The notes below the pieces were generated by a model, which saw only the letters and a list, made by a program, of their open reading frames with translations, was not told the DNA's origin and ran no database searches. The translations under genes were made by a program, and so were the position numbers. DNA of 32,000 bases, from contig OZ246420.1 in the NCBI GenBank assembly GCA_965231145.1, forward strand, positions 120,001-152,000, given 5' to 3'. This stretch comes from Candidatus Saccharimonadota bacterium (lineage in GTDB: Bacteria; Patescibacteriota; Gracilibacteria; Absconditabacterales; Absconditicoccaceae). This document shows positions 1,057-31,255 of the stretch, piece by piece. Each line of letters begins with the position of its first letter. The stretch's first letter is position 1.

Positions 1057-1084
1057 TTGACTTATTTGTCGGATTGTATATAAT
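1057..1084 (+). promoter_or_regulatory. sigma70-type promoter TTGACT-16 nt-TATAAT
   Basis: TTGACT at 1057-1062, a 16-nt spacer, and TATAAT at 1079-1084. This implies a leader of about 140 nt before ATG 1230. Confidence 0.55.
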
Positions 1085-1229
1085 ATAAAAGCGCGTTCCA
1101 TTTCGGTCGAATGCGTGGTTTCTTAACAGCTTACTCTTTCGTTCAAGGTTGCCGGCAAGCTTCCTTGGATAAATTTATGATAAAAAATTTTTCAAACAAA
1201 ACATTCAAAAAAACATTAAATTTGAGAAT

Positions 1230-4200
1230 ATGAAAAAACTACTTATTTTGATGAGCTTTGTTTGCTCATTTTGTGTTCCTGTTTTCGCTCAGTTCGTAAC
1301 GAATGAGATACAGGTTGTTACTAAAGCGCCTATTGTGTGGAATAGTAAAGAACAGTCAGCGGAATTCCTTGAAAAATTTCCTGCGGGTTCTAAGGTTGTT
1401 AACTGTGCTGACATAACATTGTTCAGCCAGCAAGAAGACCTTGTAAGGCAGGGGAGATATTGGGGAACTCTATTTCTTGTTCAACTGCCCACCTCGAACG
1501 CAAGTACACTAGTTTCCACTAAGCAAGCATTGCTTGAAAATGATGAAAGTGTTGTTAAGGACGTCTACTTAAATGTTGTAGGCTCTTCAAACTCGTCTAC
1601 TCCAATTACTTTTTCAGACCCTGTTTTTCCTTATGACATGCAGTATAACGCTGCTGCGATAGCGGGGGGTGTAAAGTACACCGGCTGGCAACATGCTAAC
1701 GGCTATATATTCTATAATACCGATAGAATATTAGTTGGAGTAATAGATGGAGGCGCTAATTTGTCTCACCAGGATGCGGTTAATTCCTATTATATTAATG
1801 CTTTGGAAATAGCGGCAAATGGTATTGATGACGACATGAATGGAAGGATTGATGACGTGAATGGTTGGAATTTTGTTTCTAGTAATAATAATGTTGCTGA
1901 TGACAATCCTATCGGACATGGCACAGTTGTTTCTAGTGAATTGGGCGCTCGTAACAACAATTCAAAGAATACTGTTGGTTACTTGTCAGACTCAATGTCT
2001 GTTTTAGTTCTGAAGGCTGCGAATTCTTCCGGAACTGTTACCGATTTTGCGACAGCGAGTGCGTATTATTATGCATTATCTAAGCATTGCAGGATCGTAA
2101 ATATGTCATTCGGTTTTTCAAGTGTGCCCACAAGCCTAATGGCTGCTATAGCCACAGGTGTTGTAGCGCCTTATAATTGTGTTCCAGTCGCCGCAGTGGG
2201 AAATACGGGCGGTTCTTATACCGCTTACCCCGCGTCTGGGGCTCATGTTCTAACTGTTGGTAATTGCGATAATGGCGGAGTTCGTCATTCTACTTCGAGT
2301 TATTCAACTGAACTTGATATCATGGCTGTTGGGGTTAATGTGGCAGGACATCATCCTACCAGCACAACATTAAACACAACTCTTACTGGTACAAGTCAGG
2401 CTGCTCCTAAAATTGCTGGCGTATGCCATAAAATATTAAAGGCAGATAGTACGCTTACGGTAGATGATGTTATTGATCTTGTGAGATCAAGGGGTTTAAA
2501 TCATGCTTTCCTGCCTATGACAGGCTGGGGACCGTTTAGTGGTTTAGATACTCTTATGCACAATATGATGTCTCCAGACACAGTAGTAACTTTTGCTGCT
2601 TGTTCTGGTAAACAGTGTTTACCTTATAGTAAGCACTTCGCTCCTGTAGATAGTTTAAGGTTTGGATTGGCGGCAATAGCGGGTGATAGTATTAATACTA
2701 ACTTGCTTACCGCTGGCACTTATACTTATAAACTGTCTGTAAAATTTGAACCACGACCAGGCGAGTTCTTTAGGGATACGTTTAACCTTAAAGTTGTTAT
2801 TACTGGTTCTGGTGGCTCTGTCGCTCCAACTATCAGCATAAATGCAACTCCAGGTGGAGCTGTGTGTGCTGGTACATCGGTTAACTTTACCTCAACCATT
2901 ACTGATGGAGGCGCTTCGCCAACATATGTGTGGAAGGTAAATACTGTTACTGTAGGTACTGGAAGTAGTTACTCTTATACACCAGCAAGTGGTGACGTTG
3001 TATATGCGATACTTACAAGTAGCGCAGGATGCGCGTCGCCAGCTACGGTGAACAGTAATACTATAACGATGACAGTGAACCCAAGCGTTACGCCTGGAGT
3101 CACTATTAATGCGACACCTGCCGGAGCAATCTGTGCAGGCACATTAGTTACCTTTAATTCGACTATAGCAAATGGCGGTTCAACGCCATCCTATCAGTGG
3201 AAGAAAAATGGTGTAATAGTTGGTAGTGGTACTACATATACTGACATGACGTTAGCAACTAGTGATATTATCACTTGCAATCTGACAAGCAGTGCTGTTT
3301 GCGCAGTACCAGCTACAGTAGCAAGTAATACCATCACCATGACAGTTAATCCTGTACTGGTGCCTGGGATCACTATCAATGCAACACCTGTCGGAGCAAT
3401 CTGTGCAGGAACATCAGTAACCTTTTCATCTGTCGTAGTTAATGCAGGCTCTTCGCCTGTATACGACTGGAAGGTAAATGGTGTGTCGGTTGGTTCGGGT
3501 ACAAGTTACAGTAGTTCTACTTTGGTAAGTGGTGATCTTGTTACATGTTCATTGGCAAGCAGCGCAACATGTGCGAGCCCATCCAGTGTAACAAGTAACA
3601 CTATTACAATGACAGTGAATCCAAGCGTTACGCCTGGAGTTACTATCAACGCAACGCCTGCTGGTTCTGTTTGCACAGGAACTTCGGTAACGTTTACTCC
3701 AACTATCACTGGCGGAGGATCAACTCCTTCTTACCAATGGTATGTGAATAGCGTTCCCGTAGGTACTGGTACATCTTACTCAAGCTCTAGTTTAGTAACT
3801 GGAGACTTAGTGAGTTGTACACTTGCAAGCAGTGCAGCGTGTGCTACACCGTCTAGTGTCGGTAGCAATACCATTACAATGACAGTTAGCTCATCTGTTA
3901 CTCCTTCTATCATAGTAGCTGCCACTCCTGGCGCTAACGTGTGTACAGGAACTACTGTTACGTTTACTGCGACTCCTTCAGGCGGCGGTTCGACTCCTAC
4001 TTATCAGTGGTATAAGAACTCAATTCCTGTAGGTACAAGTTCAGTAACGTATGTTGATGCTTCTTTGCTTTCAGGAGATGTTATTTCGTGCGAGCTTATT
4101 TCAAGCTTAGCTTGTGTGACAACTTCGACAGCTATGAGTGCAGCAATAACTATGACTGTTAATGCAACAGTCACTCCAGCTGTAGCCGTTGCTGTTTCTC

Positions 4201-5249
4201 CTTCTGCATCTATATGCAGCGGAACATCAGTGACGTTCTCAGCCACACCATCGGCAGGAGGCTCTTCGCCTAGCTACCAATGGTACATAGGAGCAACGCC
4301 TGTTGCTACTGGTAGCACCTTTTCTTCTTCAACTCTTGCAACAGGTGATGCTGTGAAGGTTGTGATGACCAGTAGTGCGGCTTGTGCTTCACCGACTACG
4401 GCTACCAGCGTGATAACCATCATGACTGTTACGCCAAGTGTTGCCCCCTCAGCTACCATTAACGCGACGCCTGGCACAACAATCTGTCCAGGCACTCCCG
4501 TTAGTTTTACTTCCTCTATCACAAACGGAGGCTCTACGCCTACGTACACATGGAAGAAGAATGGTGTTCCTGTTGGAAGTGGCACTACTTATAGCAGCTC
4601 AGCACTCATAAATGGAGATGTTATTGTTCTTACTGTAACTGGTAGTGCTGCGTGTTCAGTACCATCAACAGTTAATAGCAATACAATCACTGTAACGGTT
4701 AATACGCCGGTACCAGTGCCTTCGTTTACTATAAGTGGGACTCCAGTCCTTGTTGGATCTGGTGTTTACAAGGGGATCTATACTGCCACTATACCTAGTG
4801 GCGTATCTACTTATACGTTAGACTGGTACTTAAATGGAGACCTCCAGGCAAGTACTATAACTAATAGTTGGGTTCATGATCCGCTTGTTAGTGGGCATCC
4901 TGACACAGTTTACGCTGTGTTGACGCCTACGAGCGGCTGCTATTCACCAGACACTTTCAAGTCTGGTGCAATTGTTCTAAAGTCTCCCGTTGGCGTTGCC
5001 GCGCTAACGAAAGAGAATGTTAATATATATCCAAATCCAGTACATAATCTTCTTACCATTGAAGGTTTGCATAAAGGCAGCTCCGCTGTCGTTGTAAATG
5101 TTCTTGGGCAGGTGGTGAAAAACTATACGTTTATGAATGACAATTCTGAACAAATAGAATTTACATCGCTTATGCCGGGCATCTATACGTTGCGTATCAT
5201 TGATGAAGAGGGTATGTCGGAGTTGGTATACAAACTAATGAAAGAGTAA
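1230..5249 (+). CDS. secreted subtilisin-like (S8) serine protease with 7+1 Ig-like repeats and a T9SS-type C-terminal sorting domain
   Basis: Uninterrupted 1339-codon ORF with a TAA stop and no in-frame TGA. Signal peptide MKKLLILMSFVCSFCVPVFAQ. Subtilase triad motifs VGVIDGG (Asp), GHGTVVSS (His) and GTSQAAPKIAG (Ser). The C-terminus NIYPNPVHNLLTIEG...GIYTLRII...KLMKE resembles the Por/T9SS tail. Confidence 0.9.
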   Translation: MKKLLILMSFVCSFCVPVFAQFVTNEIQVVTKAPIVWNSKEQSAEFLEKFPAGSKVVNCADITLFSQQEDLVRQGRYWGTLFLVQLPTSNASTLVSTKQALLENDESVVKDVYLNVVGSSNSSTPITFSDPVFPYDMQYNAAAIAGGVKYTGWQHANGYIFYNTDRILVGVIDGGANLSHQDAVNSYYINALEIAANGIDDDMNGRIDDVNGWNFVSSNNNVADDNPIGHGTVVSSELGARNNNSKNTVGYLSDSMSVLVLKAANSSGTVTDFATASAYYYALSKHCRIVNMSFGFSSVPTSLMAAIATGVVAPYNCVPVAAVGNTGGSYTAYPASGAHVLTVGNCDNGGVRHSTSSYSTELDIMAVGVNVAGHHPTSTTLNTTLTGTSQAAPKIAGVCHKILKADSTLTVDDVIDLVRSRGLNHAFLPMTGWGPFSGLDTLMHNMMSPDTVVTFAACSGKQCLPYSKHFAPVDSLRFGLAAIAGDSINTNLLTAGTYTYKLSVKFEPRPGEFFRDTFNLKVVITGSGGSVAPTISINATPGGAVCAGTSVNFTSTITDGGASPTYVWKVNTVTVGTGSSYSYTPASGDVVYAILTSSAGCASPATVNSNTITMTVNPSVTPGVTINATPAGAICAGTLVTFNSTIANGGSTPSYQWKKNGVIVGSGTTYTDMTLATSDIITCNLTSSAVCAVPATVASNTITMTVNPVLVPGITINATPVGAICAGTSVTFSSVVVNAGSSPVYDWKVNGVSVGSGTSYSSSTLVSGDLVTCSLASSATCASPSSVTSNTITMTVNPSVTPGVTINATPAGSVCTGTSVTFTPTITGGGSTPSYQWYVNSVPVGTGTSYSSSSLVTGDLVSCTLASSAACATPSSVGSNTITMTVSSSVTPSIIVAATPGANVCTGTTVTFTATPSGGGSTPTYQWYKNSIPVGTSSVTYVDASLLSGDVISCELISSLACVTTSTAMSAAITMTVNATVTPAVAVAVSPSASICSGTSVTFSATPSAGGSSPSYQWYIGATPVATGSTFSSSTLATGDAVKVVMTSSAACASPTTATSVITIMTVTPSVAPSATINATPGTTICPGTPVSFTSSITNGGSTPTYTWKKNGVPVGSGTTYSSSALINGDVIVLTVTGSAACSVPSTVNSNTITVTVNTPVPVPSFTISGTPVLVGSGVYKGIYTATIPSGVSTYTLDWYLNGDLQASTITNSWVHDPLVSGHPDTVYAVLTPTSGCYSPDTFKSGAIVLKSPVGVAALTKENVNIYPNPVHNLLTIEGLHKGSSAVVVNVLGQVVKNYTFMNDNSEQIEFTSLMPGIYTLRIIDEEGMSELVYKLMKE
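2820..4709 (+). repeat. seven in-frame tandem repeats of about 267-273 nt (about 90 aa), plus a degenerate eighth copy up to about 4985
   Basis: Repeat units start at 2820, 3087, 3354, 3627, 3897, 4170 and 4440. Consensus: VTPgvTINATPaGaiCAGTSVTF.S.i.nGGStPsYqWk.NGv.VGsGt.YsSs.L..GD.v.C.LtSSa.Ca.P..v.SNTITMTVN. Similarity is visible at DNA level, for example 3077-3127 versus 3617-3666. Confidence 0.9.
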
Positions 5250-5270
5250 GCTAATAGAGAAATCTATTGA

Positions 5271-5297
5271 GCGCCCGGTATCTTCCGGGCGCTTTTC
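5271..5297 (+). terminator. rho-independent terminator of the protease gene
   Basis: The arms gcgcccgg and ccgggcgc form a perfect 8-bp stem with loop tatctt, followed by TTTT. Confidence 0.8.
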
Positions 5298-6554: not shown

Positions 6555-7010
6555 ATGTCGATGAAACATAGTGCTGTCGCGCCTGAGCATCAGGCGATTA
6601 TTTGCCTCGCTGAGCTTGCTCTTGGAGAGGAATGGGAACATATATCGAGAGTAGTGAAAAGCTTGTTGTACCTTTCGCAGAGTGAAAGATGATATCTGAC
6701 AGTTATGTTGCCTGCTGTCTTATTCTTTACTCTCGATGAAGGTTTTCGCTATAATCTTTTAAAAAGCGTTGATACATACAACGATGAGGCTATTGAATAT
6801 ATTTCCTCTCTACAACAAATGCTTCGCGTAGGAAAGTATCTTGATAGTAATGAGTATCGCATGATACATGATGCATTTCTTCTCAATGCTGATCGCGCTG
6901 TGGCGATAAAAGAAATGCAGACTGAGTCTGGTAAGGTGCTCATGAAGCAGAGAAAAGCTGCGCTGAGGATATTTTATAAAAAAGAGAAAAAGGATATGAT
7001 AAGCGTCTAA
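6555..7010 (+). CDS. hypothetical protein (code 25; one TGA-Gly at 6690-6692)
   Basis: The frame of track ORF 6705..7010 stays open upstream to the TAA at 6528. ATG candidates lie at 6555 and 6561. No homology recognised. Confidence 0.5.
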
Positions 7011-7012
7011 GG

Positions 7013-7034
7013 AGACGCACTGCAGTGCGTCTTT
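7013..7034 (+). terminator. palindromic hairpin after the 6555..7010 gene
   Basis: The arms agacgcac and gtgcgtct form a perfect stem with loop tgca. The T-run is short. Confidence 0.4.
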
Positions 7035-7144
7035 ACATATCTTCTCGTTGTTTTTGAGAGGAAGATCAGTAGTATATGTGTGCTGAGCAACAACTCAGAT
7101 ACTAAGGATTCATATCCTTTTTTACTCGTTTCCCGCACAAACGC

Positions 7145-8248
7145 ATGAAAAAATTATTGTACACACTTTTGACGTTCTATAAGTTCGTCGACATACAAGA
7201 CCCTGAGAAAGAGGTAAAGGACCATCTCGCTTTTTGTAAAGACGTCGGTCTGAAAGGCCGTATATATATTGGTGAGGAAGGTATCAGCGCAACACTCACC
7301 GGAAATGATGGACAAATCAAAGCGTATAGGATGTATTTGAATAATAATCCTTATTTTAAAGATATTCCAGATATTGATATTAAAGCGACTCGTGTAGATG
7401 ACTACTATTTTGATCGTATGATTGTGAAGTATCGTAAAGAGATCGTAGCGCTTGGAACTACTGTAACACAAGCCGAAATTGAGGAGTATCGCAAGGAAAT
7501 GTCGGCTGAAGATTTCAAAAAGCTTATTGACTCCGGAGACCTTGAGGACTGGGTGATTATCGACATGCGTAATGACTATGAGTATAAGCTCGGACATTTT
7601 AAGAATGCTATTCCTGCGGGAACTATTAATTTTCGTGAAGTGCCAGACTTGCTTGATAAGTACAAGCAGCTTTTTGGTGAGAAGAAAATTATCTGGTATT
7701 GTACTGGAGGAATCCGTTGCGAAAAGCTTTCTGCTATGGTGTCTAAGGCATGATTCAAAGATGTGTATGCACTCGAGTGAGGTGTTGTGAAGTATGTAAA
7801 TAGTTATAATGACGGTAACTGGCTGGGTAATCTTTACACGTTCGATGGGCGTGTATCGACTCGTGTTGGTGACGATGAAACACATACAACCATTGGTGAG
7901 TGTATCTATTCTGGTATGAAAACGGATAACTGCGAGAATTGCCGCTATAGTCCTTGTAATGCACGCATTATCTGTCGCAAGAAACAGTATAAGCGCCACA
8001 TGGGTTTCTGCTCTCAGGAGTGTTATGAGAATGCGAAGAAGGATCTCCTTATCAAAAATATCGCAGGTGATGAGTTTGATTATCAAGCAATTCGTGATAG
8101 CATTAAAAAGATCGCTGATGAAAACGGAGACAAGGATGCTATAGAAGCGTTGCGTCAGCAGGTAGTGAAGCATCTTGAGGATGAGCTCGGTGTTGTGAAA
8201 TTTAATCACGCTGTCAGTCAAAAAGAGACAGTTATTTTCCAAGATTAA
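7145..8248 (+). CDS. trhO: tRNA uridine(34) hydroxylase TrhO (rhodanese-domain UPF0176/YceA family)
   Basis: ORFs 7145..7753 and 7787..8248 join through TGA at 7751-7753 and 7778-7780. The segment [21 protein letters not shown](G)FKDVYALE(G)GVVKY parallels E. coli YceA [36 protein letters not shown]. A Cys-rich C-terminal tail follows. Confidence 0.85.
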
Positions 8249-8332
8249 CATACATTTTCTAGTCACAATTAGTTCGTTGTTTCGTATACTTTAGTGTCTA
8301 CATTAAGGCAATTTTACTATGCTTATTATTAC

Positions 8333-9484
8333 ATGCAACAAATACAAACTGAGCAATTAAAAGTTTTTCTCGTTGATATAGTTCCACCTACATTTCCCGC
8401 AGACCTTATAGAGCATCGTATGCAGGAGCTCGAATCATTGGTCACAACATACCAGTGAGTTGTCGTGGTAAAGAAAATTCAGAAACGTATGACGCCAGAT
8501 TATCGTTTATATATTGGTTCGGGGAAACTTGAAGAAATTAAAGATGAAATGAAGGCCATCGGAGCCAATCTTTTGGTGATCGGAAATATTTTGAAACCAT
8601 CGCAGGTATATAATATCAGCGAAATACTTCGTAAAGACGAGATCAAGATCCGAGATCGTGTTGATCTCATCTTAAAAATCTTTGAACGCCACGCAAAGAG
8701 TACCGAGGCAAGATTGCAAATAGAACTCGCTGCGATCAAACATATGGGACCTCGTATCTTTGGTATGGGTATGGAGCTTTCGCGTCAGTGATCATCAGGA
8801 TCTGGAGGCGGTTCAGGAGCATCGCGTGGACTTGGTGAAACGAACACTGAGCGTATGCGCCGTCATCTGAGAGACAAGCAACTTGATCTTAAAAAGAAGC
8901 TCGAGCAGTATAAACATACAAGAGCGCTGCATCGTGAAGCAAGAACCCGTCAATGATTTCCTACGGTGGGAATTGTCTGATATACTAACGCTGGTAAGTC
9001 TCGTTTGATGCATGCGTTAACGAGTAAAGATATTCTCGTAGAGAATAAACTTTTCGCGACGCTTGGAACAGCCGTAGGTAAACTCTATGTTCCTTTGAAA
9101 AATACGGACGGTGAGGAAACAGGAAGAGGGAAAGAAATTCTTATCAATGATACGATTGGATTTATCCGTGATCTTCCACCCGATCTGATAGATGCTTTTT
9201 CGTCAACATTGGAGGATAGCGTTCATGCTGATTTGTTGCTTCATGTGATAGATGCGTCCGATGAGTATATTGAGGAAAAAATAGAAGTGGTAGATGCAAT
9301 CCTCGAAAAGATCGGCGCGACACAGCAAAAGCTCTATGTGTTCAATAAGATAGATCTCATTTCGGCTGAGAAAGTGGCTTCTCTCCATGAAAAATTTGCG
9401 AAATTCGAGCCTATTTTTATCTCGGCCAGTAAAGGGGAAGGTTTGGAGATTTTGAAGAAAAAACTAGCAAATATAGTTTTGTAA
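8333..9484 (+). CDS. hflX: GTPase HflX
   Basis: One frame holds 4 TGA-Gly. Recognisable motifs are ...SRQ(G)SSGSGGGSGASRGLGETNTE.. and the G1 motif FPTVGIV(G)YTNAGKS (TGA at 8978-8980), plus DTIGFI and NKIDL. ATG 8333 is the first start after TAG 8270. Confidence 0.9.
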
Positions 9485-9545
9485 AGTGATTGCTAACAAC
9501 GCCCAGATAGTTATAATTTACTTAGTTTAATTTTGTGGCATAAAA

Positions 9546-10655
9546 ATGCGTGGAAGAGCTATTGTGGCGGGAGCATTATTGTGACGAAGTTCGCTGGGTG
9601 GGTGTGAGGAAGACAACCTGTCTGTTATGAATGAGCCACGCGAACAAGTTTCTCAGAGCGAAAAGGTAAATCTTGTGCAGGTGCAGTCTGTACATGATAT
9701 TTTAGAGACTCTTCAAAATCGTCCTGGTGAGATTACGAATCATGGGCTTAAAGCAGAAGTCGCGGAATTAAATATTCCTCAAATCCAGAAAGATAGTCTC
9801 GTAGAAGAAGTTAATCGCATGCCAAATGATGATATTCATGTGATCTCGATGGAGCGCGTAAGAAAGGGACCTTTGGGAAAAATGAGAAATATTAATCACA
9901 ATCTTGCAATCTTGCTTGGAGGAAAATATGCCGATAGTATCATGTTGCGTTATAATAAAGACCTGATAGATGCGCTTATAGCTCAAAATCCTGACATGGA
10001 GTGAAACACATGGCAATGGCTTTGATACGCAAACCTTCAAGACACAAACGTGCCTCATGTTTATCCTTCCTTGAAGGATTTTCTTGTTCCATCGCTAAAG
10101 GATTTTCTTTCAGATAAACCAGAGATAAAAAACCTTGTAGGTGGTGATGAAGAAGTGATTATTATTACAAGAAATACAGATAAGAAACATGTCATAGGAT
10201 ATTATCGCGATGGACATATTGATATATGACATTATATTTCTGCAGGAGTAGGAAGGGATTTTATGGAGCGAGATAATAAGCTAAAAAGAAAGAGAAAGGT
10301 CCATGCGTACACAAAAGAATGACTCTTCTATACAAATTATAATGTAGAGAGAGGTATGAGAGCAGATAGGAGAGATTCAACATATACTTCTTCGACATTT
10401 TGAGCGTCAAAAAAAGGTAAACATGCTGATGCTCCTATGCCATATGCAGTGCCTATTGATGACGATTTATATCAAGATGGAGTCTTTTTGCATACAGGCT
10501 ATGCTGATGGAGAACCACGCTCTCACCAGTGTAATCGTCTGGCTGGTTGGTTAGCGATGTATATGTATGACGTGATAGGTGATAGAAAGGTAAAAGTGGT
10601 TATCCATAACATGTATGATAAAACGAAAAATTCAAAGAGCAAAGAGCAGGATTAA
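9546..10655 (+). CDS. L,D-transpeptidase (YkuD-domain) lipoprotein
   Basis: ORFs 9627..10004 and 10437..10655 share one frame, which stays open through 6 TGA. The N-terminus MRGRAIVAGALL(G)RSSLGGC is lipoprotein-like. The C-terminus APMPYAVPI...GVFLHTGYADGEPRSHQCNRL fits the YkuD His...SHxC catalytic core. Confidence 0.6.
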
Positions 10656-10763
10656 ATAAAGATATACATTCTGTATTATGATTGCTTATTTTTGAATTAA
10701 GATTGGAGTTTTCTAGTAAAATCCTTATCTATAGGATATTCTATTTGATCGAGAAATGTTCAT

Positions 10764-11342
10764 ATGCAAGACGATAATCTTCTGGTAGAAAGGATACAAA
10801 AGGGCGAAAAAGAGCTGTTTAGTGTGCTGTATGAAAAATACTGTCACAAAATTTTGTATTTTCTGTTTTATAAGTGTAATGATATGAGCAAGGCTGAAGA
10901 TCTCGCAGCAGATACCTTTATGAAAGCGTTTGATGCAATAGGTTCTTTCCGTCCACAGAGGGAAAATGGCTTTAGTTCATGGCTTTATACTATCGCTACC
11001 AATATATTTCTGGATAGCGTAAAGAAGAAAAAAGAAGCTTCATTTGATGAAATGGTTGAATTTATACCCGATGATGCTGCGGGGAATATGACTGATAAGA
11101 TTCAGGTGGGTCAGCAGGCAGAAGAGATATTGACATATCTAGACACATTGGGTCCGGACAAGAAAGAATTGTTTGTTATGCGTATCTGGCAGGATATGAG
11201 CTGGGAAGAAATAGAAGCGGTAACGAAGAAATCAAGCGCTGCGCTTAGAAAAGAATATAGCAGACTTGTACAAAAGCTGATAGAGAAATTTGGATATATG
11301 GCAGTTTTATCTTTACTGTATGGAGGACGATGGATAAAATAA
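10764..11342 (+). CDS. ECF-type sigma-70 family RNA polymerase sigma factor
   Basis: Region 2 (EDLAADTFMKAF...FSSWLYTIATNIFLD) and a region 4-like C-terminus. It overlaps the next gene (ATGGATAAAATAA). Confidence 0.8.
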   Translation: MQDDNLLVERIQKGEKELFSVLYEKYCHKILYFLFYKCNDMSKAEDLAADTFMKAFDAIGSFRPQRENGFSSWLYTIATNIFLDSVKKKKEASFDEMVEFIPDDAAGNMTDKIQVGQQAEEILTYLDTLGPDKKELFVMRIWQDMSWEEIEAVTKKSSAALRKEYSRLVQKLIEKFGYMAVLSLLYGGRWIK

Positions 11343-12370
11343 ATGCGCTCTATGAAGAGCTGCTCTCATACGATAGCTCGCTGTCAAAAGACAAAGAGAG
11401 AGTTTTGCAACTCATACAAAAGATGGTAGCAGCAAAGCCTACGATCGTTGTTAATGAACAATGGAAAAAAACTTTTGCTGAAAAACTTTCTGATCATATT
11501 GCTATAAGCAAGGCTGTAGCTCATTCATCTTCATCATTTTTCTCGTTTTCAAGATGGTCAGTCTCTGTTCTTTCTACATTTATCGTACTAACACTTGCGG
11601 GAGCTAGTTACCGGGGACTGACTTATAATAACTCAAAGCTCAAAACTCAAAGCTCAAAACCACATACTGCAGATTCATTGAATCATTCGCAAAATTCGCA
11701 TTATAATACAGAAGAGTCGGCACATGTGTCAGATTCTATCGGAGCACAAGAGCCATCATTCAATTCACACGCGAGGGAAAATGTAACCGTTGCTATAGAT
11801 AATAAATGACCAGTTGTAGATGCAGAAGTAAAACAAAGTGACTTAACTAATACGCAAACAATCTCGCAATTTGCTAAGGAGGCGCCTGTTGCCTATGATG
11901 CATCTGTGAGTAACGCCAATACGATGTCGACAGATGTCGACAAAGAGGGCGCTCGTATGATGATGCAGTCAGAAGAAGCAATATGAGGAGGAATTGATGG
12001 CGTTGCTCCTGATATGCAAGCGACGTCGTTAGCAAAAACTTCTGTAGAACAGAAACTTATTGCGTTCGTTGTGATAGATCCTTCATGAACATGACTGAGC
12101 GCTTCAGCTCTTGAGATTATTGCTGAGCAAGATCTGCCTATCACATATGTATCATCGCAGGAAAAACTTTTTGCTACAAACCTTTCGGGGAGTATTTATG
12201 CTGTTTCTGAAAATAATATTTCTACCATTTCATCGGCTATCGAAGCAAGAACTATGCTTGTGTTTGAAAGAAATTATGTTTCTAACCACACTGAGCAATT
12301 TGGAATGCTTGTAAGAGAGCTGAAAGTTCAGTGATATGTGTTCGTTAGTCTTTCGTTTATGCTGCAATAA
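11330..12370 (+). CDS. putative anti-sigma factor, single-pass membrane protein
   Basis: Translationally coupled to the sigma gene. TM segment WSVSVLSTFIVLTLAGASY. The frame continues past TGA 11807-11809 and four more TGA to TAA 12368-12370. Confidence 0.5.
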
Positions 12371-13559
12371 TTTCTTTGAGCGCAGTAAAGAAAAGATCAA
12401 TATCTTCTTTAGTATTATACAGATAGAGGCTCATCCTGCATGAGCCGTTTTTTTGTATATGCGCGAAAAATGGATGTGTACAGTGGGCTCATGTACGAAT
12501 GCAAATTCATTTCTGTGCAAGTTTTTCCCCAAGCTGAATATGATTTGGATGTGATGGTATGACAAAAGAAAAAACTCCAATTCTTCATGTGGCTTCTTTC
12601 GGTCCAATAAGTTGAATAGAGTCTCATAGAGTGTTGAACTTATCGAGAGCATATTGCACGAGCTCGTGTTCGTGAGCTTGTATTGCTTTGTATCATCCTA
12701 TGCTATCCATGTATTCTATAGCTTTTAGAAGTGAGAGAGCACCTATGATGTGAGGTGTTCCTGGTTCAAATTTTTCTGTAGTTTCTTTTAGCTTATAATT
12801 ATTGTTTGAGACTTCTTCGATGCTTCCGCCTCCTCATATGCTTGGAGTCAGTGAATGCAGAAGCTCTCTTCTTATGTGCATTATTCCTAGCCCTGTGTCT
12901 GCCATCATCTTATGTCATGTTCCTATCAGTGCATCGCATTGTAGCTCTTCTACGTCCAATGCAAAGTGTGGTAGCGCTTGTGAAGCATCTACAATAAATA
13001 TCGTGTCGTCGCGAAGGAGTGAGGAAATCTTTTTCAAATCATATATCTTTCACGTTACATTTGATGCGGCACTGAGCGAAACTATTTTCACATTGCTTGT
13101 ATACTTCTTTGCAAAATCGACTACGTCGATATCATACTTATCATCTATGTTTACTCGTTCGATCTCAATTCACTGAGCCTTTGATGCTATTTGCCATGGA
13201 ACAATGTTTGCATGATGTTCTGCAACTCATAGGAGAATCTTGTCTCAAGCTTGCAACTTTTTAGAGGAAATAAGAGCTTGTACCAATAGATTGAAAGCAT
13301 AGGTAGCGTTGTATGTATAGACAATGTTTTCTTTCTTTGTTCCTATGATCGCTGCAAATGCTTCTTTAGAAGCGTCATATATTTCTTCTGCTTGCTCACT
13401 GAGTTCGTATGAGCCACGATGTATGCTTGCGTAATTATGTTCCAGAAAATATTTCATGCCGTCGATAACATGAGCTGGTTTTTGTGCAGTAGCGGCGCTA
13501 TCCAGATAGACAAGCGATGGGTTATTTGTGAGAAGAGGAAAGTCTTTTTTATGATTCAT
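12357..13559 (-). CDS. sufS: cysteine desulfurase, SufS/class V aminotransferase
   Basis: I checked every codon by hand: no TAA/TAG and 11 TGA-Gly. Motifs: FPLL..LVYLDSAATAQKP, (G)DKILL(G)VAEHHANIVPWQ, SNVT(G)K, GT(G)HKM, FEPGTPHIIG, and HCTHPF...CRMSLYLYNTKEDID. Confidence 0.85.
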
Positions 13560-13701
13560 CTTATGCAACGTACGAGATGATAAATAATAAATAAATGATA
13601 TGTAATTGAGCACTAAAAACTAGGTTTTCTTATGATTGTTTTTCTTGAAAGAACTATTATTATCTATTGGTAATTTATAACTCCTAACTCGTAATTGAAA
13701 T

Positions 13702-14565: not shown

Positions 14566-14566
14566 G

Positions 14567-15283
14567 ATGTATTATATCTATGTCGACGAAGCAGGAAGAT
14601 GACCGATAGCGTGACCAGTGTATGTTGGGGTAATTATAGAACAAATAAAAAATAAGAGATGAAAAATAAAAAATAGAAAATGATTAATTAGGAATTATAC
14701 ATGAGATAATGCTGCTGATCATTTGTCATTGTTTGCTAAATACAAATGATATGATGATAGTAAGGTGTTCAAAGAAGTACAAAGAGAAGAGTTTTATAAT
14801 AAGATAGATACTGATACGAGATACAGATACAGTTCTGGATCTTGTAGTTCGACAGATATAGACAGGAGGTGAATTGTTCGAGCAATCCGTACTTCGATTG
14901 CAAAAGCTCTCTATACAAAGCTTTGAGAAGATAAGAAGTTTTCGGAGAAAACATTTCTTCAGTGGATTCAATTTCATGCCTCTGATTTCACGCTGGTGAT
15001 TGATGGTAAGACAGACTTTGGAATAAGAAAATTATGGGGAGTTGAAGTGGAAACTATTGTTGATGGAGATGCTATTGTGCCGATGATTAGTGCTGCAAGT
15101 ATCGTGGCAAAAGTAGAGCGTGATAGAGAGATGAGAGAACATGCGATCAAGTTTCCGCAATATGGATTTGAGAAACATAAATGATATGGCACTAAGTCTC
15201 ATTACGCAGCTATAGAGCAGTATGGTATGAGTAAATTGCATAGAAAAAGCTTTCTGAAGAAGTTGCTTGAGAGTGATAAATAG
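14567..15283 (+). CDS. rnhB: ribonuclease HII
   Basis: VDEAGR(G)PIA(G)PVYVG with TGA at 14600-14602 and 14612-14614. Further motifs: [23 protein letters not shown](G)YGTKSH, HRKSF. 9 TGA-Gly in total. Confidence 0.85.
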
Positions 15284-23345: not shown

Positions 23346-23622
23346 AAAAACTGATTTTATCTTTATATTTGTATATGTCAATAAAACTGTGAAGACAGAT
23401 GATAAGATTTTTTCTTAGTTTTGTCGGTTTTTTTCGTGAAAGAGAAAAGTAGAAGATGATTGTTTTTTAAGGGTGAAATTGAATGATATTTATTCTGCTC
23501 CCTTAGTTCAATAAAAAACACCGAAATATGATAACTCTTGGTGGGCGAGAATAAACTAGATTTGGTTGATGTTGTATGATAGTGCGACAATAATAAGCTG
23601 TTTTATCTTATTAATAAATAAT

Positions 23623-25404
23623 ATGAATTCCTTAGAGCTACAGAAAAAACATGCAAAAATTTATGAAACTTTCTTTACAAATAATTCTATTGTAGTCTCT
23701 GCTCCTTTTTTGATTAATCGATCTGGAGACTTACATCCGGATTTTAGTGGTGTAAGTATAAAACAAAAGTTGCCCTTACGTTTGTATATATGAATTCATC
23801 AGAATAGCTTATGAGAGAATAAAATATGACAAACATTCTCGTATGATTACCAAGATGATGTTTTTGAAAAATATGAAGGAGAAAACTATGCTGCTTATGG
23901 AATGCTATTGCTGCAAGAGATAAATAAAAAAATTCCAAAAGATTTATGAGGAATTACAATTAATATTTTAACAGAAGTCCCTAGGACTCTTTGACTTTGA
24001 TATAACTCTATACTTTCTCTTTGCCTTAGTGTGATAATTACATTTTTGAACGATAAAGAGTCGTTTCATGAAATACTTTCCTTACCTAAGGCTCATATTC
24101 AAAATTCACTAGAAAATAGTAAGACACTTAATAAGTTGATTTCGACTTCTATGGAGCTTGATGCTGTTATTAATGGTAAGATGTGAGTCTCACTTAAGAT
24201 TTCAAGTTTCTTTGATGGATATTATCCAACAGTTTCTTTTAAAGATAGGTCTGAACATATTATTCAATATAAGGATTTGTCAAATGTGGGTTTCTATGGA
24301 TTAAGGATGAATGAAATACGAGAGCATTTACAAGATGTATCTTTCCCTTTTGACTTTTGAATTATTATTTCTGATAAGCCTATTTTAAGAGAAAATTTAA
24401 AAAATATAGATCATGTGTCGAATATATCTATAGAGGAAAAAAAACATTTAAAATCGGTTTTTGATAAAATAATTCCCAAGAATAAGGCGTCGGCGGAAAG
24501 GGGACCCAAATTTTATCATTTTCTTGATGGTTTAAAAGATAATGTATATAGTGCTTATGGTTTAATGATGTGAGCTATAAGTATAGAAACACTAAATATT
24601 TTTGGTAAAATTCTTTCTTCTTATTATAATCATGACGTTCTTTGAAGTTTCTTATCTACTATTAATAAAATCAGATATGGAAATAATATAGTTAGAAGAT
24701 CTTCTCACGATTTTTTATGATTTATAGACAGTTTTTTGTCTATTATTAATCTTCCTTCTTCTGAATTTGCGGTTTTCCCGAATGACACGCTAATTATGTG
24801 ATGAACACTGACTTATGCTTCGTCATCAGTAAAAAATAGAAATGTAGTTACTTCTTCGATAGAAAAAATTAAGACCTCTCATTCTTGAGCTGGAATATTG
24901 TATTCTAATTTTTCCGATGGAATAGCCCATAAAGGGCTTATTATAGAGCAGTATATAGGTAATGAAGTTTTTTCTAAACACTTCATTGGCAATTCGTGGG
25001 AGCTACAGGATTATACTGGAAAAAGAACGATAGGAGACTTTAACTGCTTGGTTAATAAGGAAGAATATGATCTTATACTGGATGTGTTTAATGGGAAGAT
25101 TTATCATAAAGGCCAAAAACTTACTTCTCAAGATTTGAGTTCGCAATCTACTACGATAGAGCTTGTTAAATTGCTTTTCTCTTCTCCAACTAAAGAAATA
25201 TTGAATAAGGATATGTCGTCTTCTAGTTATTCAAAAAATAAAAATGAAATGACTAGCAAAATTATTGTCCCTCTTGAGAGATGGGTGAAAGACACTATAG
25301 GAAAGGATTGCATTATTAAAGCCTCTGGCTCTCTCTCAGAATATTCTATCTATATCAAATATAATAGCTTGAGGATTGCTTTTTTAGATAAAAAGAAATT
25401 GTAA
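23623..25404 (+). CDS. GHMP-kinase-like domain fused to a C-terminal OmpR/PhoB-type winged-helix domain
   Basis: All codons 23791-24900 were read by hand: 14 TGA-Gly and no TAA/TAG. The GHMP motifs are VVSAPFLINRSGDL, EVPRTL(G)L(G)YNSILSL (the PxGSGLGSS-like motif) and IM(G)(G)TLTYA. The C-terminus LDVFNGKIYHKGQKLTSQDL..IELVKLL....IIVPLERWVKDTIG..IIKASGSL.EYSIYI follows the Trans_reg_C pattern. Confidence 0.55.
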
Positions 25405-25517
25405 ATTCTTATTTTTTCCATTTTTTTCTCTAAACATAAAAATATCTTTTCGGAGAACTTTTATAGTGGTTTCTTAGAATAAGTATCAAATATTTTATTT
25501 GTTCATTAATTTTTTTA

Positions 25518-26210
25518 ATGAATACGCTTACCATAGGTTTTGAATGATTACATAGATCTTGAAAGGGCACTCAGATGGAGCTTCTAAAAAATCACCTCAA
25601 TAATAAACTTATAGAAACTATTTCTATTAGGTGAGAATATTATAGAAAATGAAATTGAAATTGAGATTTTTTTGATCCCTATTCTAAACGATGGCAAAAT
25701 AATTGGAATAATGACGAAATTAATTTTGAAAAATCTCAGAGAATAAATAGAGAAATCAAGATTTTATTCGATAAGATTTTGCCGGCTCTTTCTGAAAAAA
25801 CATGAATAAAAGACTTTGCGGTTTTATTCGATAGAACAGTTGTTTCTAGATATTTTATAGATTCTTTATCTCAAGAAAATGTTTCATTTCAACACATAAA
25901 ACACATTTATACGAAATCTTGAAAGTTAATTGAGAAAATTGTGCCAGATATAATATTTATATTTAAGTGTAATAAAAATGTTTTGTTAAAGAGATTGTTT
26001 TTTGATAAACTTTCTGAAGAGGATTTAATCTATAAAAGACATATTATTTCTATGTTTACAGATAGATTTAATAAGTGTATTGAGGGTGATATGCCTGATG
26101 AGTTAAAAACAAGAATGGTCGTGATTGATGGGAATGCTAGTCCTATTGATATTCACCAAGAGATTATTCAACATTTAAATCCATATATCAATGCATGCAT
26201 ATGACAGTAG
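25518..26210 (+). CDS. thymidylate kinase-like P-loop nucleotide kinase
   Basis: 9 TGA-Gly. P-loop IGFE(G)LHRS(G)KGTQ, a DR-motif-like VLFDRTVVSRYF, and PDIIFIFK. It ends at ..INACI(G)Q TAG 26208-26210. Confidence 0.5.
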
Positions 26211-27388
26211 TGAGTATTAAAGATTTAGATGCAATAAGAGCCATAGAAAGCTATCTTAAGTGATGTGTGAGTTTCGCCATTCCTAAATTTATAACTAGAA
26301 ATATTGCAGTTTTGGTAATGAAATCTAATAGTTTGAAGGTTGCTTGTAAGGAAATTTATTTTTATTTAACTAGCGTGGCACAACAGGGTATAGTAAAAAA
26401 TGCAAATCTGTTATGAAATATAAACAAGATTTTTTTAGACATTGGTGTTGTTAAGTGATTATGGGAGTCTGCACATAATATAGATTATGCTAAGTTAGCT
26501 TTAGAAAAAAAAGCTTTATTGGGAGAGGAGCGAAATGATAAATATGAGCTTTCTCAAAATAAAAATAGATGATTAACAGATCTTTTAAGAAGCTGAATTT
26601 CTATTAAAATAAATGTAAGTACATTAAAAGATATTCAAAAAAAGCCTTCTTGTATAGCGGTTCCATTGATTGAATACTATAGCAATTATAGATTACTACA
26701 AATAAATAATTTCTCCCATTCGAAGCTTTCGCACCTTGTCCATGATTTATTTGATCATCTATATTTTTTCTCAGAGTTAGACAAAGAACAATTCTTTTCA
26801 TTATCTTCATCTTTTTGGTGTAAGGTTGGCAATCCTCAAGAAAGAGATGTTTTTTCTAGAGAGTCTGAGCTGATAGCCTCTATTGCGTATGAACGAAGGT
26901 ATTACTTGCAAAATCAGGAGAAGTTTAATTTATGTTTAAATAATGCTCATATAAGCGCTATGGTGAGCAAAGCTTTTTGAGCCATTAAGAATGAATATAT
27001 TGATAAAATTGAATATATAACTAGAAAGAACATAAGTGTTTATCATATATATTATAATGTCATATGTGAATTATATGAGCAGATTAGAAAAGTTGGGGCA
27101 ATAAAATTAATTAACGATAAATGAGAGTTCGAGGGAGATATAACAATGATGCTAAAAAATGATTATTTAAAAGTGATTATAGATGTGTTATATTTTATTG
27201 CTCACAAAGAAACACAGCTAAAGAAGATGTTATTGAAGATATATTCCTATATAGAATCTTTGATTTATAATAGCTTGAATAGTAGCCTAATAGAATATAA
27301 TTTAGTTATAAATCTGAGTATGCTAAAAACTCATTCCATAAGAAGGACCAAGCATGTTGCTAATTTGAAAAACTTCTTTAATTTATAA
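26201..27388 (+). CDS. hypothetical protein (395 aa, code 25)
   Basis: ATG 26201 overlaps the end of the previous gene (ATGACAGTAG). Track ORFs 26666.. and 27146.. are in the same frame. 7 TGA-Gly. It contains HLVHDLFDH. No family recognised. Confidence 0.5.
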
Positions 27389-27399
27389 ATCCATTACCT

Positions 27400-27984
27400 A
27401 TGAAAATAGAATATGAAGCTAAATTTTTATCTATTAATTTAACTGCTATTCGTAAGGCTTTTAAAGCTATAGGAGCTCATTGTGTTCATCAGAAATTGCT
27501 AATGAAGAGGGTTTTATTTGATCATCCTACCCTTGATAATGCTTTCATTAGAATTAGAGATGAAGGTAATCTTATTACGATGACATGAAAGCACATCGTT
27601 GATTATGAAAAAGTTGATGGCACGAAAGAAGTTGAACTTGAAGTAAATGATTTTAACAATGCAAAAGCCTTTATTAATTTTCTTTGAATCAAAACTAGAT
27701 CCTACCAGGAGACTTATAGAGAAATTCGACAACTGAATGATATAGTCTTCGCTATAGATGAGTGGCCTGGTATAGAACCATTTCTTGAGGTTGAGGGTGC
27801 TAGCGAAGATATAGTAAAATGAATTGCTGAAAAACTCTGACTAGATTTTAATAATGCTTATTTTTGAGCAGTAGATCTTATTTATGAAAAAGTGCTTTGA
27901 ATTTCAAAGAGTGATTTTAACAACTTAAAGTTGATTACTTTTGATAATCCTCCTTATAGGTGAATGGATGTTTATTCCGTTTAA
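27400..27984 (+). CDS. CYTH-domain protein (class IV adenylate cyclase / triphosphatase fold)
   Basis: The N-terminal EYEAKFL matches the ExExK signature. Further motifs: IRIRDEG..ITMT(G)K and IDEWPGIEPFLEVEG. 7 TGA-Gly. TAA at 27982-27984. Confidence 0.65.
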
Positions 27985-28024
27985 TATTAAGTTTGTACAA
28001 TGTAATTTATTCTTACTATACGAG

Positions 28025-28567
28025 ATGTCTAGATGAAATATAACATTAGTAATAAAGGATGAATATTTGCTGTTTTCTGATAGATTACAAGAAATGCATA
28101 GGGAAAAAGAAGAGATTGCTCAATTGTGAAGAGATGCGAATTTGCAATGAAGTGAAACCTTTGGACATGATAATCCTATTCTTGAATCTAAGCATGAAAA
28201 GTCTATGCTGCTGTCTATGCAAAGATCGAAATTTGCTGAAATAGAGAGGCACTTGTCGACATGTCTTATCACTACTGAAGAAGAGATTTCAAAAAGAAAA
28301 CAAAGTGAATTAATAGAATTTGGTAAAATCTCTATAGATGTTTGATCAATCGTCAAATTGAAAATAGCGGACTCGCTTCAAGAGAGCGAATTTCTTATAA
28401 CGGGACTTACCCAAGGAACAAAAATAACTTTTATGTGAAAAAAATATTTAACCATATGTGCGACCTCTCCAATACGAGCATGAATAAATTGAAAATACGC
28501 GGGGGAGGAGGGATTTTTCTTTCATGATTGAAAAAAGAAGTTAATATCAATTATAGATGTAAAATAA
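28025..28567 (+). CDS. greA: GreA/GreB-family transcript cleavage factor-like protein
   Basis: 7 TGA-Gly. A coiled-coil N-terminus (..RLQEMHREKEEIAQL(G)RDANLQ(G)SETFGHDNP..). The C-terminal FKBP-like part IEFGKISIDV(G)SIVKL...ICATSPIRA(G)IN(G)KYAGEE parallels SPIARALIGK. Confidence 0.6.
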
Positions 28568-30831: not shown

Positions 30832-31203
30832 CTATGCTGTTGGGCCTGCGGCTCTTTTGTAGAGCCAGCACAGAAAGACCCCCACAGCTATTTCTAATAG
30901 GTAAACAATAGAACCAATAAGAAGGCTATGGATGCCTGCCATGTTTAGGCCTATTAGCGCTGCAATTATTAAGCCTAAGATAAGGCTTGACGTGTTAGAC
31001 GGCATGAGATCCCAGAGAAAGGAACATCCTATGAGTAGCACGCCGATAGTGATAACAGCTATCATATGAGCTTGGTGGTCCAAACCTGCATGAAATATAA
31101 CCTTGCCGAGATAGTGGACTGACAAGCCAAATGCTAGTACTGTTAGGCAAATGTATAAAAGCTCTGTAAGTTTTGTGCTGTTCTTTTTGGTAGATGTGTT
31201 CAT
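30832..31203 (-). CDS. small integral membrane protein (4 TM)
   Basis: 123 aa with four hydrophobic segments. TAG stop. Confidence 0.6.
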   Translation of the reverse strand: MNTSTKKNSTKLTELLYICLTVLAFGLSVHYLGKVIFHAGLDHQAHMIAVITIGVLLIGCSFLWDLMPSNTSSLILGLIIAALIGLNMAGIHSLLIGSIVYLLEIAVGVFLCWLYKRAAGPTA

Positions 31204-31227
31204 TTTTCTTTGTTTTTGTGTATTATG

Positions 31228-31255
31228 ATTATATTCGGAGATTTGTGTAAGTCAA
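31228..31255 (-). promoter_or_regulatory. promoter TTGACT-16 nt-TATAAT (minus strand)
   Basis: The -35 box is at 31250-31255 and the -10 box at 31228-31233. Confidence 0.55.

Follow-up and report, generated by a model that had tools for sequence, protein, structure and literature searches.

Gene blocks free of in-frame TGA interleaved with code-25 housekeeping genes in a Gracilibacteria-type chromosome

Alternative genetic codes are usually taken to apply to a whole genome and to act as a firewall against the exchange of genes. The closest described systems in which this picture becomes more complicated are phages. Recoded phages, the subject of a study by Borges and colleagues reportedly published in Nat Microbiol in 2022, hold in one genome genes that need a reassigned codon and genes that avoid it. 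For Gracilibacteria and Absconditabacteria, Liu et al. (2023, mBio, PMC10746230) described predicted phages that are compatible with code 11, have no in-frame TGA, and end some genes at TGA stops backed by nearby stops; the authors argue for retained compatibility, not for recent arrival. The integrated prophages of these bacteria were, in the same study, densely TGA-coded. Here, we analyzed 32,000 nucleotides (nts) of contig OZ246420.1 (positions 120,001 to 152,000, forward strand; "the window" below), in which 12 genes in four blocks (Blocks 1 to 4) that contain no sense TGA are interleaved with housekeeping genes (the backbone) that use TGA as a glycine codon (code 25). The pattern had been pointed out in a prediction made from the sequence alone, called the original prediction below. 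With flanking contigs included, the analysis covered ∼46 kb of this genome.

TGA in the blocks, the backbone, and their relatives

When the window was read in table 11, the genes for HflX, SufS, FolD, RNase HII, and others were fragmented, as they are in the public code-11 gene calls of this region; with TGA as a sense codon, they were full-length. The residues opposite backbone TGAs in orthologues were TGA in 284 cases, GGN in 273, Ser in 43, and Trp in 3, and TGA occurred at the P-loop glycines of HflX and of a kinase-like protein. Because of these three lines of evidence, we confirmed that the backbone is read in code 25, with TGA encoding Gly. Relatives were found by a scan with the VirD4-like protein of the backbone; they include L010 ("Patescibacteria group bacterium Gw_Eff_bin_18") and L011 (metagenome-assembled genome [MAG] 7_bin.55), both at 82 to 83% identity, and L013 (a Gracilibacteria MAG) at ∼41%. 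The relatives from the GTDB scan were JAGOPC010000002, also named "Patescibacteria group bacterium Gw_Eff_bin_18," and JAUIDC010000001. Among relatives, the backbone order rhodanese, HflX, sigma factor, SufS, FolD, RNase HII, VirD4 is conserved. The interval 6555-15283 is syntenic in L010 and in L015, L016, and L018, three of four contigs (L015 to L018) from other samples; its genes have 0 to 52% of their Gly codons as TGA.

The 12 block genes, in the gene models of the original prediction, sum to 3,379 codons (1339 + 247 + 108 + 257 + 289 + 198 + 210 + 105 + 221 + 144 + 138 + 123), of which 237 are Gly codons and none is a sense TGA, so the hand count behind the prediction was exact. In backbone genes of ∼40% GC, TGA made up 69 of 4,381 codons (1.57%, or 22.8% of Gly codons), a rate at which the blocks would hold ∼53 TGAs; the prediction had given about 50 from a rate of about 1.4%. 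Even the VirD4-like gene, with 4 TGAs in 826 codons (0.48%), gives an expectation of ∼16, close to the ∼17 estimated before from 0.5%. A logistic model that takes the codon optimization of each gene into account gave ∼70 expected TGAs in the window blocks (log10 P of finding none, −36) and ∼170 across the block genes of the relatives, in which no internal TGA was seen.

The absence is specific to the reading frame. Over 8,120 codons of block-class genes from five genomes, TGA occurred 191 and 210 times in the two other frames, which is normal, and three times in frame, each time at the end of a gene (positions 16863, 21070, and 29858). General depletion of the TGA trinucleotide is ruled out by the normal out-of-frame counts. 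Codon usage was also compared between blocks and backbone, in line with a check that the prediction had proposed. GGC made up 30% of the Gly codons in the TGA-free blocks versus 8% in the backbone, and GC content was 42 to 46% versus ∼39%. In composition and codon usage, the blocks are unlike the resident genome (GGC, an effective number of codons [Nc] of 50 to 61, and the AGG usage of the S8 protease gene of Block 1), except that the GC content at third codon positions (GC3) of the S8 gene, 0.32, equals that of the backbone. TGA supplies ∼20 to 28% of Gly codons in this ∼40%-GC lineage (the window, L010, L011, and L015 to L018) and ∼85% in the low-GC Gracilibacteria genome L013; the reassigned TGA is thus a disfavored codon in this lineage.

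The eight junctions between blocks and backbone in the 32 kb were all intergenic, as had been stated. Eight compositional junctions in so short a distance, together with the difference in GC content, are what one would expect if contigs of a standard-code organism had been joined to a code-25 genome, by the assembler or in silico; both alternatives had been listed in the prediction. The same 32 kb was assembled at 100% identity from each of four runs (ERR4405439, ERR4405440, ERR4405441, and ERR7850080), with the junctions spanned, and all tested block and backbone proteins are recorded on one NCBI contig of 1,107,293 bp. Moreover, Block 1 has the same flanks in the contigs from four other samples (L015 to L018), and the GC3 of the S8 gene matches that of the backbone. 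The separate assemblies, the NCBI contig, and the conserved neighbors of Block 1 exclude an assembly or in-silico chimera; we regard any form of chimera as almost certainly wrong. The 32 kb are real, contiguous sequence from a code-25 chromosome of the Gracilibacteria type.

One proposal of the original prediction was that a class of genes is kept free of TGA. Block 1, the genes for a secreted S8 (subtilase) protease and a protein-glutaminase-family lipoprotein, bears this out, being TGA-free and syntenic in at least five genomes. The order surface-protein gene, S8, glutaminase, rhodanese, HflX is shared by the window, L015, L016, and L018; L017 keeps the S8-glutaminase pair, and the C terminus of the glutaminase is present in L010. 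TGA was found at 0 of 446 Gly codons in the S8 copies (0/116 in the window, 0/94 in L015, 0/128 in L016, 0/94 in L017, and 0/14 in L018) and at 0 of 62 in the glutaminase copies (0/14, 0/11, 0/15, 0/12, and 0/10, in the same order). The genes flanking Block 1 on those contigs had 10 to 45% TGA. Thus, sense TGA in orthologues from related code-25 genomes, which the prediction had named as the sign of its being wrong, did not appear in Block 1. The copies are far from identical (29 to 66% protein identity for S8 and 45 to 85% for the glutaminase), and the glutaminase belongs to a graded series of 12 homologues, of which those examined were syntenic and TGA-free.

The neighboring orthologues give a measure of how readily TGA is gained. 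Of 140 Gly columns conserved in the window, L015, and L016, 76 were GGN in all three genomes, and every mixed pattern of GGN and TGA occurred among the others; in S8, the conserved Gly columns were GGN in 60 of 60. Synonymous divergence (dS) among these genomes is 0.7 to 2.3, i.e., synonymous sites are saturated, and the ratio of nonsynonymous to synonymous divergence (dN/dS) for S8 is 0.14 to 0.20, so the gene is functional. A two-state model fitted to the backbone, with gain rates from nine neighboring genes in three genomes, predicted 21 to 35 GGN-to-TGA changes in S8 on the three-taxon tree, and none was observed; to produce no gains, the equilibrium share of TGA would have to be below ∼2%, versus 28% in the neighbors. 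Neutral amelioration would not predict the state of Block 1, in which GC3 (0.32) has ameliorated and TGA use has not. Block 1 is old, having been present before these genomes, now saturated at synonymous sites, diverged. Because it has made no gains while its neighbors exchanged GGN and TGA, TGA is selected against in Block 1, and purifying selection has kept it out.

Stop codons and insertion sites of Blocks 2 to 4

According to the original prediction, three block genes stop at TGA in front of a terminator. The positions were right, but the three cases differ in strength. Three nts beyond the TGA at 29858, which ends the 144-aa gene of Block 4, lies the terminator GCCCCCGGATTCGGGGGC, a 7-bp all-GC hairpin followed by T7 (29854-29837), and there is no TAA or TAG between this TGA and the promoter and ATG of the next gene. 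Read in code 25, positions 29093-30292 of the minus strand would be one uninterrupted open reading frame (ORF) of 399 aa that crosses both a perfect intrinsic terminator and a promoter. The 144-aa protein ends in ...EDTNE if it is ended by the TGA and terminator and continues as ...EDTNEGFAPGFGG if it is read through. If transcription ends at this terminator, the upstream mRNA, having no in-frame TAA or TAG, would be a nonstop message in a code-25 cell. The case for TGA 29858 as a putative standard-code stop is compelling. The other two are ambiguous and can be read acceptably in either code. In the 257-aa gene of Block 2, the TGA at 16863-16865 (the code-11 stop) is backed after 3 codons by an in-frame TAG (16875-16877) before the hairpin, and in the 198-aa gene of Block 3, the TGA at 21070-21072 is backed after 5 codons by TAATAA (21049-21054), also ahead of a hairpin.

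Whether siblings carry the same blocks at the same loci was checked as well. They do for Block 1, but not for Block 2 or for the part of Block 4 at 29093-31203, whose genes have no counterparts in L010 or L011. For Block 3, L010 has, at the same position after VirD4, a TGA-free homologue (0/12 Gly codons) of the 198-aa protein at 26% identity. The remaining gene of Block 4, encoding the 105-aa protein, has a distant counterpart next to alaS in L011 (25% identity; a weak match, E = 0.01).

Block 2 (about 15599-18058) lies between a conserved RNA-like element (15424-15598) and a small gene at 18065-18400. The same site is 54 nts long in L010 and holds an F-type ATP-synthase operon in L011 (3768-9061) and L018 (10438-11514). 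This operon is TGA-poor; in L011, TGA makes up 0 of 47 Gly codons of AtpA and 0 of 20 of the a subunit. The element itself, just 3′ of rnhB, is 150 to 170 nts long and 83 to 85% identical in four relatives (L010:9399-9568, L011:3467-3636, L016:20282-20451, and L018:10194-10365). Because each genome has different cargo right after it, the element marks an insertion hot spot. It is more conserved than the adjacent coding sequence, has a TATAAG box upstream, and can be folded into a long rod with three compensatory pairs that ends in a hairpin plus T8. It has no tRNA match, and Rfam has no match for it or for the 5′ leader of the S8 gene.

The prediction had reported no integrase, transposase, tRNA, or obvious direct repeat. 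The first three are indeed absent (there are no tRNA genes in the window, and the block proteins have no integrase or transposase domains; no att site was found), but there is a direct repeat: the 18-nt sequence TTTTTTTATTG(T/C)AAAAAT, at 15582-15599 and 16913-16930, brackets the first two genes of Block 2. The repeat is AT-rich, and its first copy is the T-tail of the RNA-like element, so it could be either an insertion scar or a chance likeness of terminator tails. Direct repeats that seemed to flank Block 4 (29022 and 31245) were rejected as merely the shared −35 region TTGACTTACAC. A phage or moron origin of the blocks was also rejected, since IMG/VR held no relatives of three block proteins and the blocks have no phage domains or hallmark genes.

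Most block proteins are orphans. The 257-aa protein has no family match, and the 210-aa protein of Block 3 has no relatives among 5.8 billion proteins. The 289-aa protein of Block 2 (0 TGA among 18 Gly codons in a 307-aa ORF model, B2_307) has one relative among 1.84 billion representatives, P0014, with 29% identity and TGA at 0 of 23 Gly codons. The three SLOG-like proteins of Blocks 3 and 4 were said to be paralogues, and this relationship is weak but real (BLASTP E values of 6e-6 and 1e-3). Pfam gave no match; a match to the ThsA STALD family has an E value of 0.009, and ThsA was also the only, marginal, match in PADLOC. An AlphaFold2 model of low confidence (mean predicted local distance difference test, 54.5) had as top Foldseek matches the ThsA SLOG domain, a Moco carrier protein, and DprA (E = 4e-3; template modeling score, 0.43 to 0.48). 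The further suggestion that all four blocks share a common origin was not borne out: their sigma70 promoters and intrinsic terminators are in the style found elsewhere in the genome.

Because they are absent from the same loci of relatives, Block 2 and most of Block 4 appear to be recent, lineage-specific insertions at hot spots. On the branch leading to the window genome, ∼6% of backbone Gly codons (5 of 81) gained TGA, a rate at which the ∼107 Gly codons of Blocks 2 to 4 could plausibly still be clean; lack of time would be enough to explain the absence of TGA from the young insertions. Recent uptake from a standard-code donor, one of the explanations in the original prediction, thus fits this part of the locus. 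Might all four blocks have arrived from standard-code donors too recently to gain TGA, with no selection at all? The high GGC share of block Gly codons (30%, versus 8% in the backbone) would fit, and the terminal TGAs resemble relics of standard-code stops. But for Block 1 this explanation is refuted by its synteny in L015 to L018 and partly L010, at 29 to 85% identity and a dS of 0.7 to 2.3, with every copy TGA-free. In addition, the S8 genes of the window, L015, and L016 form one clade (200 of 200 bootstraps), which is not expected of separate recent imports, and the sole homologues of B2_307 and of the 198-aa protein (26 to 29% identity) are TGA-free too. As an account of the whole pattern, neutral recent transfer is quite unlikely.

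Explanations for the absence of TGA

The S8 family has affinities outside the lineage. The protein has about nine Ig/PKD-like repeats and a C-terminal type A sorting domain of a type IX secretion system (T9SS), with profile matches to Peptidase_S8 (E = 2e-28), TIGR04183 (35.9 bits; cutoff, 23), and PF18962 (37 bits; cutoff, 27); the sorting domain was also called in the L016 and L017 copies. The glutaminase matched PF18626 (E = 5e-9) and, below the cutoff, NF040782, the Chryseobacterium protein-glutaminase (E = 5e-18). Patescibacteria are not known to have an outer membrane or a T9SS, and the T9SS machinery is not expected in them. The literature describes the T9SS as restricted to Bacteroidota and the Fibrobacteres-Chlorobi-Bacteroidetes (FCB) group, and our literature search found no paper that links T9SS-tailed proteins to Gracilibacteria. 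Of the named homologues of the protease domain, nearly all belong to Bacteroidota. The nearest relatives outside the clade, P0026 and P0027, have 49 to 50% identity and the same architecture and lie on contigs of Bacteroidota MAGs. One of these contigs has a gene for 5S rRNA along with a DUF805b RNA motif; its counterpart is of 49% GC and has a neighboring gene that stops at TGA. In a neighbor-joining tree (316 to 432 columns), P0026 and P0027 join the clade of the window, L015, and L016 before L017 does, i.e., inside the S8 diversity of the code-25 lineage. Because of this branching order, the family appears to have passed at least twice between standard-code Bacteroidota and the code-25 lineage.

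The expression signals of Block 1, in contrast, are of the native type: the sigma70 promoter is conserved, the leader is structured, there are Shine-Dalgarno-like sites, and the terminators are intrinsic. The S8 promoter is the only 11/12 promoter match within positions 1-15000 and is conserved, with the leader, in L016. The leader (1085-1229) forms two hairpins whose stems have changed on both sides between the window and L016 (upstream of 5813), with TTAACAGCTTACTCTTT invariant, and it may be a cis-regulatory RNA.

The best-supported reading, which we think somewhat more probable than all others together, is that the blocks are accessory genes of standard-code origin that are kept readable in both codes. 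Genes derived from standard-code organisms would have been inserted at a few hot spots between housekeeping genes. They would be written so that both codes give the same product, with no sense TGA and with stops that are TAA, TAG, or a TGA backed by a nearby TAA or TAG or by a terminator. Block 2 and most of Block 4 would be young insertions that have had too little time to gain TGA; Block 1, with its outside relatives in Bacteroidota, would be old and inherited with the backbone, its TGAs removed by purifying selection. Selection would then act to preserve readability in the standard code. Two reasons seem the most probable: the genes may be part of a pool shared, through exchange, with standard-code Bacteroidota, or their translation may be needed at times when tRNA-Gly(UCA), which reads TGA, is in short supply or under attack.

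Several observations weigh against this reading. Mobility genes, an att site, and viral relatives were not found in the searches described above, and with most proteins being orphans, Blocks 2 to 4 have no identifiable donor and a standard-code origin suggested by their format only. The gain-rate estimate and the S8 tree have the narrow bases given with them. Sigma70-type promoters and Shine-Dalgarno-like sites argue against transcription of the block genes in a Bacteroidota cell. Finally, room is left for an expression-linked cost of TGA by the GGT-rich Gly codons of S8 (48% GGT), by the fact that six of the seven best sigma70 promoter matches in the window precede block genes, and by native-looking genes that are also TGA-free, namely, AtpA of L011 and a lipoprotein gene adjoining alaS (0/26 and 0/33 Gly codons in two genomes).

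These last observations are the core of a serious rival, a TGA-specific expression cost: TGA would be a poorly decoded Gly codon, purged by translational selection from very strongly expressed monocistronic genes, and the standard code would be irrelevant. In backbone genes, the TGA share falls as an index of codon optimization built from non-Gly codons rises (Spearman, −0.74), and AtpA of L011 combines its lack of TGA with an Nc of 41. The near-consensus promoters ahead of block genes are each matched by a strong terminator, and the alaS-adjacent lipoprotein is conserved. However, the block genes have index values at which backbone genes have 20 to 50% TGA, which is how the logistic model arrives at its ∼70 and ∼170 expected and unseen TGAs, and no other genes in the data set have a codon bias as weak as theirs (Nc, 50 to 61). 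In S8, ATA accounts for 35% of Ile codons, AGG for 39% of Arg codons, and TTA for 19% of Leu codons, shares at least as high as those in TGA-rich genes. Codon optimization in general is thus rejected as the sole cause; because Block 1 is not codon optimized, the selection appears to be specifically against TGA. In addition, translational selection leaves it unexplained that in-frame TGAs occur only at gene ends before terminators, and top expression of every one of a dozen orphan accessory genes is unlikely. We therefore consider this rival unlikely.

Length or secretion was also rejected as the cause. To the left of S8 (window 1-762, L022:2-10119), three very large surface-protein genes adjoin it; their products have 1249, 561, and >1489 aa, the second with a Peptidase_S74 domain, and TGA makes up 42 of 151, 4 of 73, and 14 of 85 of their Gly codons, respectively. 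Secreted giants in the neighborhood carry 14 to 42 TGAs, with 42 in the 1249-aa protein.

A bolder rival is that standard-code ribosomes sometimes translate these genes, for example, in a Bacteroidota host that would export the products through Sec and the T9SS, and that they lack TGA for this reason. The conserved sorting domain in the window, L016, and L017, the reported limits of the T9SS, the nesting of Bacteroidota homologues within the S8 diversity of the clade, the VirD4-like coupling ATPase between Blocks 2 and 3, and the absolute avoidance of TGA, as expected if TGA is a stop, would all be consistent with such cross-decoding. However, the promoters seen here are of the sigma70 type and some genes have Shine-Dalgarno-like sites, neither of which Bacteroidota are known to use efficiently. 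Neither a transfer mechanism nor an origin of transfer or relaxase was seen, and it is not evident what the SLOG-like proteins or the small membrane proteins would do in a host. For these reasons, cross-decoding is very unlikely. To its broader form, in which genes of a code-25 episymbiont are either decoded by Bacteroidota hosts or shuttled through them and the code boundary serves as an address label, we give little credence. If it were true, "self-only" genes, which need TGA as Gly, would be set apart from "host-compatible" genes, and the T9SS sorting signal of the protease would make sense only in such a host.

Neighboring genes and comparison with known systems

Table 1 lists the features of the window. 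Directly upstream of the VirD4-like gene, a small cysteine-rich protein is encoded at 18065-18400 (plus strand) and is conserved in L010 and L011; judged by eye from the L011 counterpart, the product is probably of the RNHCP type. Relatives and public gene calls support this gene, and the minus-strand ORF at 18021-18407 was rejected as spurious. The five-gene segment at 23569-28567, between the TGA-free Blocks 3 and 4, encodes CYTH/class IV adenylate-cyclase-like and dTMP-kinase-like P-loop proteins. Neither L010 nor L011 has a counterpart of this segment, which resembles an island acquired from a code-25 donor of low GC. A 316-aa orphan gene at 22395-23345 (minus strand) has a near-consensus promoter (23381-23354), 35% GC, and TGA at 2 of 15 Gly codons, and so is intermediate in character between block and backbone.

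The 408-aa lipoprotein gene adjoining alaS lies ∼2.5 kb past the right end of the window (L021:2182-3408, minus strand). Its L011 counterpart (L011:19474-20742) is 48% identical, and both copies have native-like Gly codons with no GGC; this gives a second example of an exported protein that evolves fast and is conserved and TGA-free. The plus-strand ORF at L021:2143-3450 was rejected as a miscall on the evidence of relatives and public gene calls.

TABLE 1 Coordinates of features in the window (position 1 is the first nucleotide of the 32,000)
Feature	Coordinates	Strand	TGA	Signals and remarks
Sigma70-type promoter, TTGACT-16-TATAAT (1057-1084), and ∼145-nt structured 5′ leader of S8 gene	1057..1229	+		Block 1
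S8 (subtilase) protease, 1339 aa, secreted	1230..5249	+	0/116 Gly codons	Block 1, gene 1
Intrinsic terminator of S8 gene	5269..5294	+		Nearly identical in window, L015, and L016
Protein-glutaminase-family lipoprotein, 247 aa	5412..6155	+	0/14 Gly codons	Block 1, gene 2; terminator 6178-6203
Code-25 backbone	6555..15283			Rhodanese/UPF0176, HflX, extracytoplasmic function (ECF) sigma factor, SufS-type aminotransferase, FolD, RNase HII, others
Conserved noncoding RNA-like element	15424..15598	+		Terminator tail is left edge of Block 2 insertion
Membrane protein, 108 aa	15668..15994	+	0	Block 2; promoter 15615-15642, terminator 15996-16018
Secreted protein, 257 aa	16092..16877	+		Block 2; promoter 16038-16065, hairpin plus T7 16890-16919
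Orphan protein, 289 aa	17065..17934	-		Block 2; promoter 18014-17987, terminator 17048-17028
VirD4/TraG-like coupling ATPase	18467..20947	+	4	Backbone, between Blocks 2 and 3
SLOG-like protein, 198 aa	21052..21666	-		Block 3; hairpin plus T9 after stops
SLOG-like protein, 210 aa	21686..22318	-	0/13 Gly codons	Block 3; promoter 22376-22349
Low-GC code-25 segment, five genes	23569..28567	+	45/91 Gly codons	27 to 31% GC
Acidic protein, 105 aa	28667..28984	-		Block 4; terminator 28646-28624
Third SLOG-like protein, 221 aa	29093..29758	-		Block 4; promoter 29815-29788, terminator 29074-29056
Membrane protein, 144 aa	29837..30292	-		Block 4; ends at TGA 29858-29860
Secreted or membrane protein, 138-163 aa	30265..30756	-		Block 4; overlaps start of 144-aa gene; promoter 30738-30711
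Membrane protein, 123 aa	30832..31203	-		Block 4; promoter 31255-31228

One chromosome here holds two classes of genes, those that depend on the reassigned codon and those kept free of it over saturated synonymous divergence. Under the reading we favor, selection for code compatibility would have left a signature that can be measured gene by gene in a cellular genome, beyond phages, and Bacteroidota would be indicated as donors, partners, or hosts of an uncultured lineage. Transfers into recoded genomes may be datable by the gain of TGA at Gly codons, used somewhat like a clock. A codon-wise partition of translation in recoded symbionts also becomes testable, with tRNA availability, phage pressure on the special tRNA, and exchange with hosts as possible causes. 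Even if a TGA-specific expression cost were all there is, a disfavored codon (20 to 28% versus ∼85% of Gly) would still inform how reassignments settle.

Compared with classical genomic islands, the blocks have similarly atypical codons (GGC at 30% versus 8%; an AGG-rich S8 gene) and variable hot spots, one of them behind a small-RNA-like gene, and Blocks 2 and 4 are patchily present in relatives. Unlike such islands, they carry no mobility genes; a block holds one to five genes, and each of these has a promoter and a terminator to itself. The S8 protein has the layout of Bacteroidota T9SS cargo proteases (signal peptide, S8 domain, Ig/PKD repeats, and type A C-terminal domain) but is encoded in a Patescibacteria genome behind a sigma70-type promoter.

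The resemblance to the phages of Liu et al. (PMC10746230) is that the blocks, too, lack in-frame TGA in a code-25 setting and that the TGA stops at 16863 and 21070 are closely backed by another stop; the one at 29858 is backed by a terminator only. Whereas those are whole phage genomes, the blocks are chromosomal and interleaved with TGA-rich housekeeping genes, with no hallmark genes and no relatives in viral collections, and the prophages in that study are TGA-dense, the opposite of the blocks. Also unlike that study, persistence could here be measured against orthologous neighbors. The original prediction held that an interleaved dual-code architecture had not been described. For the chromosomal case this stands, in that our literature search found no report of nonphage, chromosomal code-25 genes kept TGA-free, but the claim is tempered by the TGA-free phages of Gracilibacteria. 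Like the recoded phages of Borges et al. (bioRxiv 10.1101/2021.08.26.457843), the window unites genes that need and genes that avoid a reassigned codon. In those phages, the partition lets two gene sets be translated separately, depending on the decoding machinery at hand, and follows the infection program of a recoded phage in a standard-code host; here, the cell is recoded, with no sign of a temporal program or a switchable tRNA, and it is the accessory genes within it that can be read in the standard code.

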